Source: an uncultured Nitrospinaceae bacterium
Lineage (GTDB): Bacteria > UBA8248
DNA length: 57,688 nucleotides
NCBI GenBank assembly: GCA_964558115.1
Contig: CAZLCI010000004.1
Span: 1 to 57,688 of the forward strand
Reading direction: 5' to 3'
In this document: one piece after another, positions 16,851 through 29,018 of the stretch
How the letters are laid out: every line of letters begins with the position of its first letter
Position numbering within the stretch: the stretch's first letter is position 1
Translations under genes and position numbers: made by a program
The notes under the pieces: model-generated
What the model saw: only the letters and a program-made list of their open reading frames with translations
Database searches by the model: none
Told to the model about the DNA's origin: nothing

Positions 16851-18524
16851 TTAGAATGGTGGGGTAGGCTGAAATGATGTCAAAACGTCAACAATTGTAG
16901 GCACATTCGAATCCAAAGCTTTTTTTAGGGAAGGTTTCAATTCGTCTGGTTTTTCAACTCGAAATCCAATACCACCACAAGCATTTGCAATTTCTGCAAA
17001 GTTCGGACTTTGAAAATCACAACCATATGCGGTTCCATAAAGATTGTTTTGTTGTCCAATCATTTGGGAGAAAGCTCCATCATTAAAGATAACAAAAACA
17101 GCGTTAGCACCGTACTCGCATGCAGTAACAAAATCACCAATAGTCATTAAGAAAGCTCCATCTCCTGCAATACCAACGACTTGTCTATCAGGGTGTTCTA
17201 GCTTTGCTACGAAGGCAGTTGGTAAACAAAATGACATCGCATTCCATACTCCAGACTGCATATAAGATTCTGTGTGATTTAGTGGAAAGTAATATCTTCC
17301 CCACATTTGACTATTTCCAACGTCGGTGACGACAATTGCGTCCTTTTTAATAGAATCAACTATTGTCTCTACAATGAATCCTGTGTGTAAAGGAATATTA
17401 TTACGAACTCCTTCAAGATGATTTGTTACTGATTTTTTGAAATCCTCTTTAATTTCAGCTATTTTAGATTTTATATTTTCATTTGTACTTCTATTTTCTT
17501 TTTTCAGTCTTTCAAGTAAAGCAGATAGAAAGAGTTTTGGATCTGCAACAATTTCGTCTTTTTTGGAATAATTTTCATCCTCTTCATTATCAAAGCCAAC
17601 TAAGATATTTTCTTTTTGGGCGTACTTTTTTAAAAAAACAGTTTCCGCAGTGGACGCTCTTAACCCAATTGAAAAAATAAGATCTGTTTCTTCAATTACA
17701 TATCTAAATCTAGGGTCAGTTCTATTATCAATAAAATGTCCTGCAGAAAAAGGGTGATCGTCAGGAATAATACCCATAGAATCTTGAGGATAAACTATAG
17801 GTGCGGAGAGAATTTTTGAAATTTCCTCTAATTCTTTAGTCGCTCTTTTTCTGATCACTCCTTTTCCAGCAGCAATCATTGGGAATTTTGCATTTAAAAG
17901 ACGATTTGCGATTTGTTCTATATCTTCATTAGAAGGTTCGATAACTTCTACAGGCTTTTGTTTATAAGTAGGAAAGGAAATTGGTTTCTCTTGAAGAATA
18001 TGTGGAGAGTAATCAGAAAGTCTAGGGAATTCAATGTGTACTGGTCCTGGTCTCCCACTTTTACTAATTTGAAAAGCTTTTGCCATGATTTCCGGAATAT
18101 CTTCTAACTTTTCGACACGTACACTCCATTTAGTTACATTTTCACACATTTCAACGGTGAATTCTGAATTATCTACTCCATGAAAAGCTTCTCTTGATGC
18201 ATTTAGAGGAACAGCTCCTGTTATATGAATTACTGGAGAGGCAGCACCATAAGCTTGTGCAAGACCTGCAATAGAATTGCAGACTCCAGGACCTGCAGTA
18301 AGTAAGCATACTCCGGGTTCCCCTGTGAGTCTGCCATATGCGTCTGCCATAAGGGTGACGTTAGGTTCCATTTTACAGGTAATCACTTCGATAGAAGGGG
18401 TTTCACGTAGACCATCATAAAAATTAAGAACATGCGAACCAGGCAAACAAAAAATTTTTTTTACATTTTCTTGAACTAAAGCGTGAACAACCGCTTGACC
18501 GGCATGCATTTTTTTTTCTTCCAT
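16851..18524 (-). CDS. Thiamine diphosphate-dependent enzyme (acetolactate synthase-like family), substrate unknown
   Basis: E..MADAYGR, T.GPG..N, GRPGPVHIE, ThDP motif GDGAF...FND. Confidence 0.9.
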   Translation of the reverse strand: MEEKKMHAGQAVVHALVQENVKKIFCLPGSHVLNFYDGLRETPSIEVITCKMEPNVTLMADAYGRLTGEPGVCLLTAGPGVCNSIAGLAQAYGAASPVIHITGAVPLNASREAFHGVDNSEFTVEMCENVTKWSVRVEKLEDIPEIMAKAFQISKSGRPGPVHIEFPRLSDYSPHILQEKPISFPTYKQKPVEVIEPSNEDIEQIANRLLNAKFPMIAAGKGVIRKRATKELEEISKILSAPIVYPQDSMGIIPDDHPFSAGHFIDNRTDPRFRYVIEETDLIFSIGLRASTAETVFLKKYAQKENILVGFDNEEDENYSKKDEIVADPKLFLSALLERLKKENRSTNENIKSKIAEIKEDFKKSVTNHLEGVRNNIPLHTGFIVETIVDSIKKDAIVVTDVGNSQMWGRYYFPLNHTESYMQSGVWNAMSFCLPTAFVAKLEHPDRQVVGIAGDGAFLMTIGDFVTACEYGANAVFVIFNDGAFSQMIGQQNNLYGTAYGCDFQSPNFAEIANACGGIGFRVEKPDELKPSLKKALDSNVPTIVDVLTSFQPTPPF

Positions 18525-18734
18525 TACTTTCCTTTCGATGAATTTTGCCTTTTATAAATAATCGAACACCTTCAACGCAATTCAAAAGATATTTATATTT
18601 TGAAAAGTGGTAAGTGTTATATATATTACTTGTAAGCACTTTATAAAACTACCTACTATAAAGGAATTTTTTCTTTCATTATAAGTTTAGGTTAAAGGCA
18701 TATCTATGATCTTTAAAAAATAATAGGTGAAAAA

Positions 18735-19655
18735 ATGAAAATACTTCGTTTTGGCAAAGATAGGATTGGAATTATCAAGAATGAAAATTTTGTTGTTGAT
18801 GTTAGTGAAATAATTAAAGATCGTGAAATTAAAGGAGAACAAACTGTTATCGAAGAAGTCATTTCTAATTATGACAATTTGAAGGAAGAAATTGAGAATC
18901 TTGTAAATAAAAATGAAGGGAAACCACTTGATCAAATAGATATTCTTGCCCCAGTTCCCAGGCCGAGTAAATGTATTGGTGCGTTTCTAAATTATCTGGA
19001 TTTAGGAAGAACTGTTGAGATGCTTCCATTGGAATTTTTTTATAAAGACAATACTTTGCTCGGGCCAGGCGGAACTATAAAATTAGTTGATATTCCTGAG
19101 GTAACTGAATTTCAACCTGAAGCTGAATTAGCATTTATTGTGAAAAAAAATGCTAAAGATATAAATGTTGAAGATGCGATGGATTATGTTTTTGGATATG
19201 TTCCGTTTTTTGATATTTCAGTGCGTGGAATTACACGTTACACTCGTTTCTTGACAAAAGGTCAAGCCACCCATGGACCTTGTGGTCCTTGGATTGCTAC
19301 TAAAGATGAGATTCCTAATCCGCATAAACTGAACGTGAAATCCTGGGTTAATGGTCAAATTGCTCAAGATTATAGTACAGAGCATATGGCACATAAGATT
19401 CCAGATTTAGTAGCATGGGCGAGCCGTTTTGTTGAATTGAGAACCGGTGATGTGATTGCTACAGGAACATATCATGAAGGCAGGAAGCCAATAGTTGATG
19501 GAGATTTTTTGGAAATTGAAATTGAAGGTATTGGCAAAACTGGATTTCATGCGCAAGGCTTTAAATCAAAAATTGATTCTTCGAATTCTGAACCTAGTGC
19601 TAGTCCTGCACCTGCGCCGGGAGTTAAAGATTCTTCAAAAATAACAAAGATTTGA
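18735..19655 (+). CDS. Fumarylacetoacetate hydrolase family protein
   Basis: EAELAFI, FDISVR, K...T.GP.GP.I, GDVIATGT. Confidence 0.9.
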   Translation: MKILRFGKDRIGIIKNENFVVDVSEIIKDREIKGEQTVIEEVISNYDNLKEEIENLVNKNEGKPLDQIDILAPVPRPSKCIGAFLNYLDLGRTVEMLPLEFFYKDNTLLGPGGTIKLVDIPEVTEFQPEAELAFIVKKNAKDINVEDAMDYVFGYVPFFDISVRGITRYTRFLTKGQATHGPCGPWIATKDEIPNPHKLNVKSWVNGQIAQDYSTEHMAHKIPDLVAWASRFVELRTGDVIATGTYHEGRKPIVDGDFLEIEIEGIGKTGFHAQGFKSKIDSSNSEPSASPAPAPGVKDSSKITKI

Positions 19656-19693
19656 CAAACTGAAATTTCTATATAAAACGAGGACCCGATCTG

Positions 19694-21298
19694 TTGGATA
19701 AAAAAAATATTTACCTTAGTTTTGATGTTGCTATTGTGGGAGCTGGTTTTTCCGGGTTGTCTCTACTTTATCATTTAAGAAAAAAAGGTTTTACTGCCAG
19801 GGTGGTAGATATCGCCAAAGATGTTGGTGGTACTTGGTATTGGAACCGGTATCCAGGGGCAAGATGTGATACCGAAAGTATGCAGTATTCCTATAGTTTT
19901 TCAGACGAACTTCAACAAGAATGGAACTGGTCTGAGAGATATGCAACCCAAGCAGAAATCTTGGAGTATATTAATCATGTAACTTCACGTTTTGATTTAC
20001 GAAAAGATATTTCTTTTGGTACTAGAGTTACAAGAGCATCTTTTAGGGAAGAATTGAGCCAATGGTTTATAGAAACGGATAGAGATCTGCAAATCAAGTC
20101 AAATTTTCTAGTGATGGCAACAGGATGTCTCTCTTCCCCTTTTTATCCCAAAATAAAAGGTCTTGAAAATTTCAAGGGTTCTATATGCCATACAGGACGT
20201 TGGCCGCACAGTAATGTTGAATTTAAAGGAAAGAAGGTCGGCGTTATAGGTACAGGTTCTTCGGCAATCCAATCCATCCCAGTCATATCAAAAAATGCGG
20301 AGCATATTTATGTTTTTCAGAGGACTGCAAATTTTGCAATACCTGCTCATAATGGACCTATTCCTCAGGAGAAAGTAAATCATGTGAAAAGTATCTATCC
20401 TGAGATTAGAAAAAAAGCAAAAGAGTTGTACGCTGGTTTTTACCAAACCTATAATGACAAATCTGCTTTAGAGGTATCTGAGGAAGAGAGAAATGAAGAA
20501 TATGAAAGACGTTGGCAGCATGGAGGACTGCCTTTTTTTGGTGCATTCACTGATTTGACTTTTGATGAAAATGCGAATGAAACTGCTGCAGAGTTTGTTC
20601 GATCTAAGATTAGGGAAATAGTAAAAGATCCTATTAAAGCTAAGAAATTATCACCTCAAACTGTTATTGGTTGTAAAAGGTTATGTGTAGATACGGATTA
20701 CTATGCAACTTTTAATCGTGAGAATGTCTCTTTAATTGATATTAAAGAGAGTCCAATTGAAAAGATTACTGAAAGAGGGGTTATAGTTTCCGATCAATTG
20801 TATGAAATTGATTTGCTTGTTTTGGCCACAGGCTTTGATGCAATGACGGGATCAATTCTAAAGATAGATATTCGTGGGAGAGGTGAAAGGTCTATACAAG
20901 AGAAGTGGAGTGAAGGTCCTAAAACATTTCTTGGTCTAATGACTGAAGGGTTTCCTAATTTTTTTATGATTACTGGACCTCAAAGTCCATCTGTTTTAAC
21001 AAATATGTTAACTAGCATAGAGCAACATATTGATTGGATATGTGATTGCCTTATCTTCTTAAGAGAACAAAAAATAAAAAAGATTGAACCCAAAAAAGAA
21101 ATCGAAGATAACTGGGTTCAACATTGTAATACATTGGCTTCGGAAACACTTCGTTATAAATGTACTTCTTGGTATCTCGGCGTGAATATTCCTGGAAAAC
21201 CTAGAATTTTTATGCCTTATGTGGGTGGATTTCCTATGTATAAAGAAAAATGTGATGGTGAAGCCCTAAATGGGTATCATAGTTTTAAATTATCATAG
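19694..21298 (+). CDS. Type I Baeyer-Villiger monooxygenase (CHMO/PAMO-like)
   Basis: GAGFSG, GGTWYWNRYPG, FKGSICHTGRW fingerprint, GTGSSA, ATGFD, SWYLGVNIPGK. Confidence 0.95.
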   Translation: MDKKNIYLSFDVAIVGAGFSGLSLLYHLRKKGFTARVVDIAKDVGGTWYWNRYPGARCDTESMQYSYSFSDELQQEWNWSERYATQAEILEYINHVTSRFDLRKDISFGTRVTRASFREELSQWFIETDRDLQIKSNFLVMATGCLSSPFYPKIKGLENFKGSICHTGRWPHSNVEFKGKKVGVIGTGSSAIQSIPVISKNAEHIYVFQRTANFAIPAHNGPIPQEKVNHVKSIYPEIRKKAKELYAGFYQTYNDKSALEVSEEERNEEYERRWQHGGLPFFGAFTDLTFDENANETAAEFVRSKIREIVKDPIKAKKLSPQTVIGCKRLCVDTDYYATFNRENVSLIDIKESPIEKITERGVIVSDQLYEIDLLVLATGFDAMTGSILKIDIRGRGERSIQEKWSEGPKTFLGLMTEGFPNFFMITGPQSPSVLTNMLTSIEQHIDWICDCLIFLREQKIKKIEPKKEIEDNWVQHCNTLASETLRYKCTSWYLGVNIPGKPRIFMPYVGGFPMYKEKCDGEALNGYHSFKLS

Positions 21299-21346
21299 GA
21301 TTTATTTTATTCGGGTTTTTAAAATATATTATCTTGGAGTTAAATC

Positions 21347-22480
21347 TTGAATTCGAAGACAGGTTGGTATACATATTTCCCTTCAGATCTAAGATGGTCA
21401 CGTTCAATTTGCTGGATGATTTCTTGTGCTAGATGGGGAGGTTCGGAAATTGGAGAAGTAGACCAAGTGTGTCGTCGGTTATCACAAAATATTGGGAACG
21501 ATACTCATTGGTTACGTGAATGGTCAAGAATGGGAGAAAAAATTTTTATTCTTGCAAAAAGTGAGGAAAAGAAAGGTCATTCTCTTACTGCAGCCTCACA
21601 CTATCTTAGAGCCTGTTACTATTTCCAAATGGGAGAAAGATTAGTTTCTCCTAAAACTGAAAAGTCTATGTCAATTTATAAGAAATCTATAGATTCCTTT
21701 AAAAATTATTACAAATTAGTTGACCGTCCTATAATACAAAAAGTAGAAGTACCATATAAAAGAAAAAAATTACCTGCATATTTTGTGCAAGCAGAAAATA
21801 CGAAGAAAACAAAATGCCCTACAGTAGTTTTTTTTGATGGCAGGGATGTAACGAAAGAGATCCAATTTATCTGTGGTGTAAAAGATATGGTACGGAGAGG
21901 GATGAATTGTCTAATACTCGATGGCCCTGGAACTGGAGAATCAGTTCGTTTCAGAAAGCTTTATTTGCGTCATAATTATGAATTAGCCGGAAGTGCAGCT
22001 TTTGACTATCTTGAAACAAGAAAAGATGTCAATACAAAAAAAGTTGGTGTTCTTGGAATAAGTCTTGGAGGATTTTATGCTTCTAGAGTTGCGAGTTTTG
22101 AGCATCGATATAAAGCTTGTGTCGCTTGGGGTGCGAATTGGGAGTATCAAAAAACTTGGAAAATAAGAGGAGTTCCTGCTCACTCTTATATGGAAATTAT
22201 GAATGTGAAAACTGAAGAAGAAATGCAAACAGAATTTGAGAAATTTTCATTAAAAGGGGTTGTCGATAAGATGAAGTGCTCTTTTCTTCTTACTCATGGA
22301 GCTAATGATAATATGGTTCCGATGAGAGAGGCTCTGGCTCATTTTAGGGCTGTCGGGTCTAGAGATAAAACATTTCGTGTTTTTTCTAAAAAGGAAGGTG
22401 GTGCAGAGCACTGTCAACTAGATAATATGACATTAGGTACTAGCTATATTTTTGATTGGTTACAAACTAAGTTGAAATAA
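21347..22480 (+). CDS. Alpha/beta hydrolase, 2,6-dihydroxypseudooxynicotine hydrolase/FrsA-like
   Basis: DGPGTGE, GISLGG nucleophile elbow, HG.ND, GGAEHCQ. Confidence 0.85.
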   Translation: MNSKTGWYTYFPSDLRWSRSICWMISCARWGGSEIGEVDQVCRRLSQNIGNDTHWLREWSRMGEKIFILAKSEEKKGHSLTAASHYLRACYYFQMGERLVSPKTEKSMSIYKKSIDSFKNYYKLVDRPIIQKVEVPYKRKKLPAYFVQAENTKKTKCPTVVFFDGRDVTKEIQFICGVKDMVRRGMNCLILDGPGTGESVRFRKLYLRHNYELAGSAAFDYLETRKDVNTKKVGVLGISLGGFYASRVASFEHRYKACVAWGANWEYQKTWKIRGVPAHSYMEIMNVKTEEEMQTEFEKFSLKGVVDKMKCSFLLTHGANDNMVPMREALAHFRAVGSRDKTFRVFSKKEGGAEHCQLDNMTLGTSYIFDWLQTKLK

Positions 22481-22499
22481 TTTCATAAGGGAGATAACA

Positions 22500-23057
22500 A
22501 TGGAAAAGCCTATCGATGGGTTCGAAACGTCTAGTGAAATTGGAAAACGTGTTATTGATCAACCAGAACTTCCCTCACAAGGTTTAGCTACAGATTCTGA
22601 AGTTTTTACTGAAGTTGTTGAAGGTCAGATTCAACTAAAAAAAGGGACCGTTAGACATTTTGAGGTTTTTTGTGATGAACAAGAAAGAATAGGTGGGACT
22701 GATAAATATCCATCTCCAATGTCCTATATGGCAATGGGAACTGGTTTCTGACTTCTAACCCAAGTTGCGCGGTACGCGCATATGATGAAAATTGATATTG
22801 AGAAGGCAAGTGTGAAGGTTAGGTTTCGTAAATTGTTAGGAGGTTCTGTATTAAAGGGTACAGTTTTTAATAAGTGGCAAGGAGTAGATACGCATTTAAT
22901 AGTAGAATCAAAAGCTCCAAAAGATAAAATTGCACACCTAATTCGAAATGCAAAAAATGGTTGCTTTGCAGAAGGGCTAATAGTGCAGTCCGTACCATTG
23001 ACAAGCACTATTGAGTTAAATGGGGAAAAACTAGATTTGGAAGGAATAACAGATTAG
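22500..23057 (+). CDS. OsmC/Ohr-like selenoprotein, 185 aa, Sec84 at TGA 22749-22751
   Basis: ORFs 22500..22751 and 22782..23057 are in frame and joined by stop-free LLTQVARYAH; GGTD.YPSP.SY....GF-U-L.TQ..RYA puts TGA at the OsmC catalytic Cys; second Cys in AKNGCFAE; SECIS-like hairpin follows. Confidence 0.88.
22766..22780 (+). promoter_or_regulatory. Putative bacterial SECIS hairpin of the OsmC-like gene
   Basis: TGCGC-GGTAC-GCGCA: GC-rich stem in an AT-rich region; loop begins GGU with 19 nt between UGA and loop. Confidence 0.75.
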
Positions 23058-23116
23058 TTTTGAAGATGGTTAACTTTGTTTTTTGATTTCTTAATTTTGC
23101 ATACTTGGGATTCATT

Positions 23117-23941
23117 ATGATAAAGACTCCGCATTTGATTTATGGGACCGCTTGGAAGGAAGAGGCTACGGAAGAACTTGTCTTATCTGCAATTAAAACA
23201 GGATATCGTAATTTTGATACTGCAAATCAGAGAAGACATTATGTTGAAATTGCTGTTGGCGATGCCCTTTCGGAGGCATATAAAAATGGTATGGAGAGAG
23301 AAGAATTTTTTTTGCAAACCAAATATACTTTTCCTGCGGGTCAGGACGAGAGACTGCCCTATGATTTAAATGCGGACTATGATGTTCAGGTTCGACAATC
23401 ATTCGAGAGTTCTCTAGAACACTTACAAACAACTTTTGTTGACTCTTATCTTTTACATGGTCCGTCTCAGCGTTTTGGTCTTGACGAATCCGATTTGATG
23501 GTTTGGGCTGAGATGGAATCTATTTTTAAAGACGGATTAACCAGAAGTTTAGGGGTAAGTAATGTAAATATTGAACAACTAAAACTTTTATACGAAGAGT
23601 CTAAAATAAAACCGACATTCGTACAAAATCGTTGTTTTGCACAAATGGGTTGGGACTGGGAAGTGAGAAAATTTTGCAGAGAAAACGAGATTTTGTATCA
23701 AGGATTCTCATTACTTACAGCTAACCATTTCGTTTTAACAACTCTAAAAGAAATTTCGGAAAGGATAAATAAAACTCCTGCTCAAATAATTTTTCGATTT
23801 GCAATTTATATTGGGATTGTTCCTCTCACGGGTACGACAAATATGTTGCATATGGAAGAAGATATTTCTCTAGATTTTGAACTTGAAAATTCTGAAATCG
23901 ATTTCATAGAAAAAGTTGGAATTGAATTTCGGCAAAGATAA
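23117..23941 (+). CDS. Aldo/keto reductase
   Basis: YGTAWK, G.R.FDTA..Y, LQTK, DSYLLH, LGVSN; ATG 23117 preferred. Confidence 0.9.
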   Translation: MIKTPHLIYGTAWKEEATEELVLSAIKTGYRNFDTANQRRHYVEIAVGDALSEAYKNGMEREEFFLQTKYTFPAGQDERLPYDLNADYDVQVRQSFESSLEHLQTTFVDSYLLHGPSQRFGLDESDLMVWAEMESIFKDGLTRSLGVSNVNIEQLKLLYEESKIKPTFVQNRCFAQMGWDWEVRKFCRENEILYQGFSLLTANHFVLTTLKEISERINKTPAQIIFRFAIYIGIVPLTGTTNMLHMEEDISLDFELENSEIDFIEKVGIEFRQR

Positions 23942-23958
23942 AATCTTGTTAATTAACA

Positions 23959-24831
23959 TTACCATTTTAGGTTTACTAACAATGCTCCTCCAACGGTCAT
24001 TAGACATCCTGTAGGTATCTTCCAAGTGAGTTTTTCAAATTTTCTTACTAGAAAAAATGCCATGGTTACTGTGAAAATAGGTGAAGTTTGGATTATAGGA
24101 AGCATACGATATACTTCTCCAAGTTTCATTGCTTTCGTATAACAAAAAAACCCACATGCCATTAATAGACCAGCGAGTAAAAAAGGTCGAAAGCTTTTTT
24201 TGATATTGACTTCCGAAAAACTTTTGGTAGTGAGAATAGTGTAGATCCCTACAATTGATAGACCAATAATCGTACCAATTGTAGTTCCAACGGTAGTGTC
24301 TGGGAATGATTGCAGACCCTTTCTCCAAAATACTGCAGCAAATGATGATACAATTGCTGCGGCGATTGGCCAAAGAATTTGAATTTTTTTGTATCCTCCG
24401 TCAGTTTTCTCAAAAGTGATAAGAGTAATCCCAGAGAAAACAAATGCGATGCCAACTAAATTTTTCCAGGTTGGTTCCTCTGACAAAATTAAAATTCCTA
24501 GAAGAGTTCCAAGAATTGGAGAACTTCCTTTGATTGGAGCAGCGCGAGCGACACCTATTTTAGAAATTCCAGTGAGATAGAATATAAAGAAGAGACCCGG
24601 ATTACATACACCTGCAAAAATTATCCATAGATAATGTATTCCAAGATTAGGAAATGTAGATTGAGAGAAAATAATAAATACAATCAAAATAAATAAAGTA
24701 CTTGCTAAAACAATAGTAGAACCTATAAATGCATTTGTGTGCTGAAGACCGGAGCGAATTGCCATATCACAAAGCGCATAAGAAAAAGACGCAGAAAGAG
24801 CAAATAAAAATGCTAAGTCAATAATTAACAA
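23959..24831 (-). CDS. DMT/EamA family transporter
   Basis: About 10 TM segments, GVARAAPI...LSEE repeat pattern. Confidence 0.85.
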   Translation of the reverse strand: MLIIDLAFLFALSASFSYALCDMAIRSGLQHTNAFIGSTIVLASTLFILIVFIIFSQSTFPNLGIHYLWIIFAGVCNPGLFFIFYLTGISKIGVARAAPIKGSSPILGTLLGILILSEEPTWKNLVGIAFVFSGITLITFEKTDGGYKKIQILWPIAAAIVSSFAAVFWRKGLQSFPDTTVGTTIGTIIGLSIVGIYTILTTKSFSEVNIKKSFRPFLLAGLLMACGFFCYTKAMKLGEVYRMLPIIQTSPIFTVTMAFFLVRKFEKLTWKIPTGCLMTVGGALLVNLKW

Positions 24832-28436: not shown

Positions 28437-29018
28437 ATGGGGAGAATAAGCGCTTTAAACGATAAAGCAAAAGGAGGTCATGAAGATAGTTTCGAGGTTT
28501 CTCGAAAACGTTGGGGCAGTGTTCCTAATTTTTACAGGACTCTCGCACATTCCCCTAAAGCTCTTCATCATATTATGGAACTCTCTTATGAACTTAGAAA
28601 GAGGTGGAGAGAAGACCCTGAAAGACTCAGACTCATGCAACTTGCAATTGTGAAACCTTCAATGATGAATCAATGCTTAATATGAACAACACATAATCAG
28701 GAGCTTGGTCAAGTTGCCGGATTAGAAGAAAAACATTTCAACGAACTTATGGGAAATTGGAGTGATAGTGAATTATATGATGATCGAGAAAAAGCGGTTA
28801 TTCGATGGGCTGAGTCCTTGACGGAGAATACTGCTCGAGATGACGACAATGCATTTTTGGAATTGAAAAAATATTTTAATGAACAAGATATTGTAGAACT
28901 TACTTTATTTACCTGTTTGTTTAATGCCTGGAATCGTTTGCAAGATGGATTTCAAAATGATTTGGAACCACCTGAAGGTCGTATTGAATGGACTCCAGAT
29001 TGGCAAGAATCTTCTTAA
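28437..29018 (+). CDS. AhpD/carboxymuconolactone decarboxylase-like selenoprotein, 193 aa, CxxU (Sec83 at TGA 28683-28685)
   Basis: ORFs 28437..28685 and 28749..29018 are in frame and joined by stop-free TTHNQELGQVAGLEEKHFNEL; S..NQCLI-U-..H corresponds to AhpD CxxC..H; C-terminal half has REKA....AE.LT and IVELT.....N..NR; SECIS-like hairpin follows. Confidence 0.9.
28694..28724 (+). promoter_or_regulatory. Putative bacterial SECIS hairpin of the AhpD-like gene
   Basis: TAATC-a-GG-AGCTT-[GGTC]-AAGTT-g-CC-g-GATTA; GGUC loop with 21 nt between UGA and loop. Confidence 0.75.

Follow-up and report, generated by a model that had tools for sequence, protein, structure and literature searches.

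A probable OsmC-like (UxxT) selenoprotein gene with an in-frame TGA in an uncultured Nitrospinaceae bacterium

The stretch of DNA analysed here, hereafter the window, comprises 57,688 nucleotides (nt) of contig CAZLCI010000004.1 (assembly GCA_964558115.1) from an uncultured Nitrospinaceae bacterium (GTDB lineage Bacteria; UBA8248). Positions 22500–23057 of its forward strand form a 185-codon gene with a single in-frame TGA at 22749–22751, which very probably codes for a single protein of 185 residues belonging to the OsmC-like (UxxT) selenoproteins, represented in NCBIfam by NF041052, and is not two small open reading frames (ORFs). With very high confidence, the gene can be regarded as a selenocysteine (Sec)-decoded member of that family. 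Gene continuity, family membership, the correspondence between TGA and Cys codons, a conserved RNA hairpin of the Sec insertion sequence (SECIS) type and the presence of the Sec machinery were observed directly. The result is an annotation correction in which two 'hypothetical' ORFs become one selenoprotein of a recognised family, and it is accompanied by three modest new points, namely the expansion of paralogues, the missing catalytic Arg and Glu of Ohr/OsmC, and a likely second selenoprotein gene in the window. The features of the gene are as follows.

22487–22494, forward strand: Shine-Dalgarno-like AAGGGAGA upstream of the ATG at 22500, read from the sequence
22500–23057, forward strand: complete OsmC-like selenoprotein gene, stop TAG (23055–23057) included, identified by the read-through translation, Pfam OsmC and NF041052
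22749–22751, forward strand: in-frame TGA assigned to selenocysteine (U84), with which the UxxT motif (U-L-L-T) opens, from the alignment of TGA and Cys homologues
22766–22780, forward strand: SECIS-type hairpin with a 6-bp stem (22766–22771/22775–22780) and a GUA loop (22772–22774), over codons 90–94 (A-R-Y-A-H)
22962–22964, forward strand: codon of Cys155, second redox residue (G-C-F-A-E), from its invariance among homologues and its alignment to the second Cys of PDB 3cje

The OsmC-like gene and its in-frame TGA

Under translation table 11 the frame is split into two ORFs, at 22500–22751 (83 amino acids, aa) and 22782–23057 (91 aa), and translation through the TGA yields 185 residues with U84. 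An earlier sequence-only reading of this DNA had joined the two ORFs into one 185-aa protein, with which both the sequence and the read-through translation agree; the codons that it quoted, from the ATG five codons before the TGA to the ATG at 22782, were verified letter by letter in the window. It had also placed a ribosome-binding site before 22500 and none before 22782. A Shine-Dalgarno-like GGGAG run indeed lies about 7 nt 5' of the ATG at 22500, and no purine-rich run was found in the sequence before the internal ATG at 22782, which comes 30 nt past the TGA and has the bases of the hairpin upstream of it.

The read-through protein scored 173.8 bits against NF041052, 'OsmC-related (seleno)protein', compared with a curated cut-off of 95 (residues 37–175, model positions 6–144 of 144), and the score in a six-frame search of the genome was 165.4 bits. 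The Pfam OsmC domain PF02566 was matched with 48 bits (cut-off 27.5) over residues 66–168, spanning the TGA, and the motif G-F-U-L-L-T-Q contains the UxxT signature. An AlphaFold2 model based on a 38-sequence alignment reached a mean predicted local distance difference test (pLDDT) score of 93.6. Foldseek placed the OsmC-like entries 2opl and 3cje at the top of the PDB matches of this model, followed by many OsmC/Ohr entries; 55 PDB matches had E ≤0.001, and among the matches listed all were OsmC, Ohr, OsmC-like or untitled structural-genomics entries.

The OsmC-like selenoprotein family with the motif UxxT was reported in 2005 by Zhang, Fomenko and Gladyshev from three Sargasso Sea sequences (PMC1088965), the Global Ocean Sampling (GOS) marine metagenome gave 5 Sec and 161 Cys forms of the OsmC-like family in 2008 (PMC2398784), and the family has also been entered in two reviews (PMC9312934; PMC13188914), UxxT being given as its motif in all four publications. 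The motif here is U-L-L-T, and the kind of protein is therefore already known, being covered by a curated NCBIfam model and by papers of 2005, 2008, 2022 and 2026. The window gene shares with this family the same hidden Markov model (HMM) family, the motif, the marine metagenomic setting and a SECIS directly 3' of the UGA; no essential difference was seen, and the gene is a family member. The word 'hidden', which the sequence-only reading had applied to the selenoprotein, suits naive ORF callers and does not extend further, since the curated model and the papers list the family.

The protein was searched by tblastn against 85 loci from its own genome, from relatives and from public genome contigs. 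The codon aligned to residue 84 was TGA in 90 of the 91 alignments covering it, the sole exception, in a second gene of locus L058 that shares only 25% identity, being TGC, and TGA stood at codon 84 in 79/79 distinct full-length family genes that could be delimited. Exactly one TGA was present in each of the 150 matches listed to NF041052 (a further 164 lie beyond these; 61 genomes). The homologues P0002–P0005, at 57–59% identity, carry Cys in the same motif (G-F-C-L-L-T-Q), and Cys also occupies the position aligned to Sec84 in PDB 3cje and 1vla. The selenoprotein call of the sequence-only reading, for which it had proposed a search for Cys/TGA pairs at residue 84, is thus upheld by the family HMM, the TGA codons and the Cys forms.

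Homologues with a residue other than Cys had been named in advance as a finding that would speak against the call. The contrary cases are three database proteins, P0007 with W and P0006 and P0008 with S-R. Judged from the proteins only, these look like gene-calling or frame artefacts (P0007 diverges downstream too). At the TGA itself, for which a read pile-up had been proposed as a further check, contigs of four public runs showed no other letter at 22749–22751. Contigs bridging the site came from two DNA runs (X2 record 5, 22510–23200; X6 records 13 and 14), and a metatranscriptome library supplied one more (X17 record 2, 22623–22920, 0 differences). The X17 contig is compatible with transcription across both halves but is no proof of it, because such libraries can hold DNA.

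The downstream hairpin and the selenocysteine machinery

The hairpin, T-GCGCG / GTA / CGCGC-A, starts 14 nt past the TGA, with its loop 20 nt past the UGA, and can be drawn just as well with a GGUAC loop closed by five base pairs. Bacterial SECIS elements need a G/U in the apical loop, and the G-G-U of this hairpin fits that requirement. In an alignment of 67 distinct 48-nt segments from the TGA onward, G23 and T25 were invariant and G24 near-invariant (alignment columns). The six pairs were standard in 90.8% of 402 cells, with the four inner pairs kept in 66/67 distinct sequences, and compensatory changes were seen at three of the six: columns 20/30 changed from CG to AU in five sequences and to GC in two, columns 19/31 from GC to AU, and columns 18/32 from UA to GC. 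The covariation score and the count of doubly changed cells were reached by 0/500 column shuffles, and pairing fell to about 10% when the partner was slid by one column. Weaker points of this comparison are that the pair-count and pair-type measures were reached by 80/500 and 64/500 shuffles, that the two outer pairs were unpaired in 20 and 14 sequences, and that two-column slides still left about 72% paired, G and C alternating along the stem. The paralogue on contig C98 of the same genome, which reads A-R-F-A-K with quite different codons, still forms a 6–7-bp hairpin, one base out of register.

The synonymous sites are the strongest control for the hairpin. At residues conserved in at least 90% of the 79 genes, synonymous entropy was 0.10–0.52 bits at codons 87–93, compared with 1.3–1.9 bits for Ala, Arg, Thr and Gly residues conserved elsewhere in the gene. 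Individual codons compare as follows.

T87: ACC in 72/79 genes, 0.52 bits (other conserved Thr, 1.30–1.43)
R91: CGG in 78/79 genes, 0.10 bits (R17, 1.47)
Y92: TAC in 77/78 genes, 0.10 bits (Y76, 1.0)
A93: GCG in 72/79 genes, 0.48 bits (A78, A103 and A151, 1.48–1.61)

Codon choice in the host genome is also informative. GCG accounts for 10.7% of Ala codons, CGG for 2.4% of Arg codons and TAC for 23.7% of Tyr codons, and GCG-CGG-TAC-GCG has an expected probability of 6.5e-5 under this usage. The same run, or a G-U variant with TAT, occurs in four of the five paralogues of the genome.

Four observations weigh against a SECIS assignment. The 71-nt fold (22740–22810) is no better than chance (z = −0.21, with 78/200 shuffles at least as stable), the stem is shorter than classic bacterial SECIS stems, and an Rfam scan of 22600–22900 at E up to 10 returned four matches, all with E >1 and far below gathering scores, the presence of a bacterial SECIS model in Rfam being unchecked. 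In addition, the nucleotide conservation partly overlaps the conserved peptide ARYAH, and protein constraint contributes to it; such constraint cannot account for the frozen third positions. The fold energy is unremarkable, and the weight of the hairpin therefore rests on comparison, that is, on conservation, covariation, frozen synonymous sites and codon choice. The SECIS-like hairpin proposed by the sequence-only reading is borne out by the covariation and the synonymous sites, RNA folding alone having given no signal.

The hairpin resembles the SECIS of E. coli fdhF in being intragenic, in lying at a short fixed distance 3' of the UGA and in its apical loop, where a G and a U are invariant, and it differs in its stem of only 5–6 bp and its spacing of 14 nt versus 11 nt for fdhF. 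In one clade of the alignment only (rows L061–L082), whose stem is GUG-U-CGCG ... CGCG-CAC, a U bulges out beneath the four inner pairs, which is reminiscent of the bulged U of fdhF. As a separate observation, public-run contigs of other paralogues matched the window only over a block of 44–50 nt containing the UGA and the hairpin (22743–22792), and their unmatched upstream ends were sequences of the paralogues on contigs C2 and C7. The matches being confined to 22743–22792, this block is far more nucleotide-conserved than the rest of the gene.

The host genome (2.11 Mb, 96% complete, 141 contigs, 35% GC) encodes the factors whose presence the sequence-only reading had proposed to check. The genes selA (569 bits) and selB (407 bits) lie on one contig, selD was found with 335 bits, all three above curated cut-offs, and tRNA-Sec was recovered both by ARAGORN (tRNA-SeC, anticodon tca) and by Rfam (RF01852, 76.6 bits). 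A marine Nitrospinota-labelled genome is thus shown to carry Sec decoding. The selD gene is itself a selenoprotein gene.

G000:C2:33365–34327 (= L099 5261–6427), reverse strand: selD with an in-frame TGA in G-G-U-G-S-K

Directly downstream of selD, on the same strand, lies a 156-residue ORF with a G-C-F-W-G motif, which we take to be MsrA-like.

Three other accounts of the TGA were considered. It is very improbable that the TGA is a true stop, leaving two small genes or a truncated pseudogene, with a frame beyond it that stays open by chance. In favour of such a stop, the frame is broken under table 11, an ATG comes 30 nt later and the fold energy of the hairpin is ordinary; against this, one Pfam domain and one NCBIfam model cross the TGA, which is kept in all 79 family genes, in genomes from 35% to high GC and from several phyla by label, no ribosome-binding site precedes 22782, and the confident structural model contains a single OsmC domain. 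Decoding of the TGA as Trp, Gly or Cys through an altered code or general read-through deserves just as little credence. The W of P0007 at the aligned position would suit it, but TGA closes 160/881 ORFs of at least 300 aa in the genome and is a normal stop elsewhere, a filter for ORFs with a single internal TGA passed only one other frame in the 57.7-kb window, itself of the selenoprotein type (the CxxU protein at 28437–29018), and the genome encodes a full set of factors dedicated to Sec. The least credible account is that TGT or TGC was turned into TGA by faulty assembly or sequencing, which the fragmentation of the assembly might invite; none of the contigs of independent runs has another letter in this codon, and four paralogues of the same genome, as well as every relative, carry TGA.

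Redox residues and the question of peroxidase activity

In an alignment of 38 sequences, consisting of 34 Sec forms and the four Cys forms P0002–P0005, the redox residue at position 84 and C155 were invariant (38/38), and the two positions align with both Cys residues of 3cje. In the structural model, Sec84 lies midway in the long first helix (73–95) and Cys155 at the kink between helices 141–154 and 156–162, 71 residues away. A redox Cys pair about 60 residues apart is the hallmark of Ohr/OsmC proteins, in whose cycle the peroxidatic Cys attacks the hydroperoxide and forms a disulfide with the resolving Cys, which is re-reduced by lipoyl groups (PMC5384416). By homology, Sec84 takes the place of the first (peroxidatic) Cys in the OsmC fold and Cys155 that of the second (resolving) one, the first Cys being assumed to be peroxidatic as in E. 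coli OsmC. The earlier suggestion that Sec at the first catalytic Cys is paired with a second Cys agrees with how the protein aligns to 3cje and 1vla and with the invariance of C155, which is that second Cys.

A route from decoding to catalysis can be proposed. SelB carrying Sec-tRNA(Sec) would bind the hairpin 14 nt downstream of UGA84 during translation, the Sec-tRNA being made by SelA with selenophosphate from SelD, and Sec would be inserted at UGA84 in place of termination; actual selenium incorporation at this codon is predicted from the sequence features described above. By homology, a hydroperoxide or some other electrophilic oxidant would attack Sec84, and the oxidised Sec84 would form a selenenyl-sulfide with Cys155 that would be re-reduced by a dithiol donor. 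Such a selenol/thiol redox cycle appears to be the most likely chemistry. The narrower proposal that the protein acts as a hydroperoxide peroxidase is evenly poised. A peroxide as the substrate, the kind of reductant and any involvement of the adjacent Baeyer–Villiger monooxygenase (BVMO), hydrolase and aldo/keto reductase genes can only be inferred.

Several findings count against peroxidase activity. The P-R-P-L-E of OsmC 1vla aligns with P-S-P-M-S here, and the R and E of the former are, from their location as given in PMC5384416, probably the catalytic pair. No invariant Arg was found in the beta3-alpha1 loop (59–72) among the 38 sequences, nor a conserved Glu at residues 73–83 in the 34 Sec forms, and an activity assay of any subfamily member was not found in the literature. 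By its sequence, the window protein belongs to the Ohr/OsmC superfamily and to NF041052 but stands outside both proven peroxidase subfamilies, lacking the Arg and Glu on which peroxidase activity depends in them. The OsmC/Ohr peroxidase analogy drawn by the sequence-only reading is weakened by this lack. The 38 sequences share invariant charged residues specific to the family, namely D59, E60, R91, K97, K152 and E158. At residue 75, which aligns with the Glu of 1vla, Asp is found in the four Cys homologues, which form one close clade, and S, T, C, A, N, G or P in 34/34 Sec forms. Sec may make an activating acid dispensable, a point on which this sample is too small to say.

The closest solved relative by sequence is PDB 3cje, Jann_2040 of Jannaschia sp. 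CCS1, a structural-genomics entry (E 1.1e-5 by single sequence, 3.2e-14 when the family profile was used). Where the window protein has UxxT it reads CxxT (G-C-V-M-T-Q), its second Cys likewise stands in G-C-F, and it too is without the OsmC Arg and Glu (P-P-P-L-A-L); it differs in having Cys instead of Sec and a shorter N-terminal region. The Ohr/OsmC thiol peroxidases, such as Xylella fastidiosa Ohr and Thermotoga maritima OsmC (1vla), share the fold and have their redox residues on the same two helices. In contrast to them, the window protein has Sec in place of the peroxidatic Cys, lacks the Arg and Glu of both characterised subfamilies and is extended at its N terminus by some 50 conserved residues.

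It is a real possibility, somewhat short of probable, that the gene encodes a genuine selenoprotein that is not a peroxidase, belonging to the third, Arg/Glu-less branch of the Ohr/OsmC superfamily and acting as a selenol/thiol oxidoreductase on another substrate, with paralogues that may serve their own clusters. The missing catalytic Arg and Glu (alignments; PMC5384416), the family's own invariant set, the five paralogues in a 2.1-Mb genome with 4–17 matches per genome in 36 relatives, the different metabolic genes around each paralogue and the reported lack of peroxidase activity in the Ohr-like TvOsmC (PMC5384416) are all in keeping with it. On the other side, the redox residues occupy the peroxidatic and resolving Cys positions of OsmC/Ohr, and Sec is typical of peroxide-reducing enzymes, UxxT being also the glutathione peroxidase motif (PMC1088965). 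The lack of a family-wide neighbour (the commonest cluster adjoins 15/79 genes) counts against a single dedicated partner, not against cluster-specific ones. A more specific version, in which family members are cluster-dedicated selenol/thiol redox partners and not general peroxidases, the present one quenching or reducing a reactive product or by-product of a BVMO, esterase and aldo/keto reductase pathway, is unlikely; if true, it would define a new functional class in an uncharacterised third branch of the superfamily. The Arg/Glu-less OsmC branch, heavily expanded here, would be a sensible subject for a first biochemical study.

Neighbouring genes, paralogues and a second candidate

The selenoprotein gene lies on one strand with a fumarylacetoacetate (FAA)-hydrolase gene, a BVMO-type flavin monooxygenase gene, an alpha/beta hydrolase gene and an aldo/keto reductase gene, in the order FAA-hydrolase, monooxygenase, alpha/beta hydrolase, selenoprotein, reductase and with short gaps.

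19694–21298, forward strand: FMO-like flavin monooxygenase (BVMO-like), upstream, Pyr_redox_3
21347–22480, forward strand: alpha/beta hydrolase, upstream, ending 19 nt before the selenoprotein start, Peptidase_S9, FrsA-like
23105–23941, forward strand: aldo/keto reductase, downstream, given as context only

This cluster recurs at the loci of the three closest genomes (94–96% identity), complete at L039, without the hydrolase at L038 and split at a contig end between L084 and L092. A BVMO or aldo/keto reductase match was found at 0/44 loci of 65–76% identity, some of which have short flanks, and only three weak matches (24–28%) occurred in these 44, to the hydrolase at L042 and L057 and to an EamA-type transporter at L056. 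The earlier idea that the protein serves a BVMO-hydrolase cluster may hold, its basis being genus-level synteny only, at loci of at least 94% identity. A consensus scan of 18400–24200 gave 16 promoters against 19.0 in shuffled sequence and 4 terminators against 3.4, and is silent on an operon either way. Across the family, no common neighbour emerged from 451 flanking ORFs of the 79 genes. The largest clusters adjoin 14–15 genes, each within one clade, and comprise a TctC-type receptor, a metallo-beta-lactamase (MBL)-fold protein, FAD_binding_2, a glyoxalase and a 2-hydroxyacid dehydrogenase.

Five Sec paralogues, the window gene included, were found in the 2.1-Mb genome. The four others share 46–55% identity with it and contain one TGA each.

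C25:4368–4943, forward strand: Sec paralogue
C2:39791–40333, reverse strand: Sec paralogue
C7:44790–45329, reverse strand: Sec paralogue
C98:2139–2687, reverse strand: Sec paralogue

Their neighbourhoods are unrelated, featuring an enolase-superfamily protein with an acyl-coenzyme A (CoA) synthetase, a CoA-transferase with acyl-CoA dehydrogenases and a flavin adenine dinucleotide (FAD) flavoprotein, pyruvate kinase with cupins, and, in another, an ammonium transporter with P-II and an MBL-fold protein with a glyoxalase. Moreover, 4–17 matches to NF041052 per genome were counted in 36 other genomes of the same taxonomic family. This strong expansion of Sec paralogues in the lineage is a modest new point, which was not found stated in the portions of the literature consulted, whose supplements may list copy numbers. 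Tandem family genes about 30–60 nt apart, each with a TGA and a hairpin, were seen at L018, L019, L085, L086 and L088 (Tectomicrobia and 'Nitrospinae' labels).

The nearest loci are labelled as Nitrospinota or Nitrospinaceae metagenome-assembled genomes (MAGs), and more distant members as 'Betaproteobacteria' groundwater MAGs, Tectomicrobia and SAR202/Dehalococcoidia. 'Nitrospinota'-labelled genomes of the GTDB phylum UBA8248, with 48–54 selenoprotein genes, have been reported in 2026 to be among the bacteria richest in such genes (PMC13326102), and by isolate label L056 and L088 come from one of these genomes. OsmC has 0 occurrences in the main text of that paper, and the present gene adds to its record of very large selenoproteomes in related genomes (PMC13326102).

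The one further frame that passed the single-TGA filter is likely to be a second selenoprotein gene of the window.

28437–29018, forward strand: likely selenoprotein gene for a 193-residue AhpD/CMD-like protein with C-L-I-U (CxxU), TGA at 28683–28685

Its product had no Pfam match at E ≤1e-4; TIGR01926, 'peroxidase-related enzyme', was matched with 60 bits, which falls short of the cut-off, and matches to two '(seleno)protein' NCBIfam models were weak. The RNA forms a predicted hairpin that begins 11 nt past the UGA and has GGUC as its apical loop.

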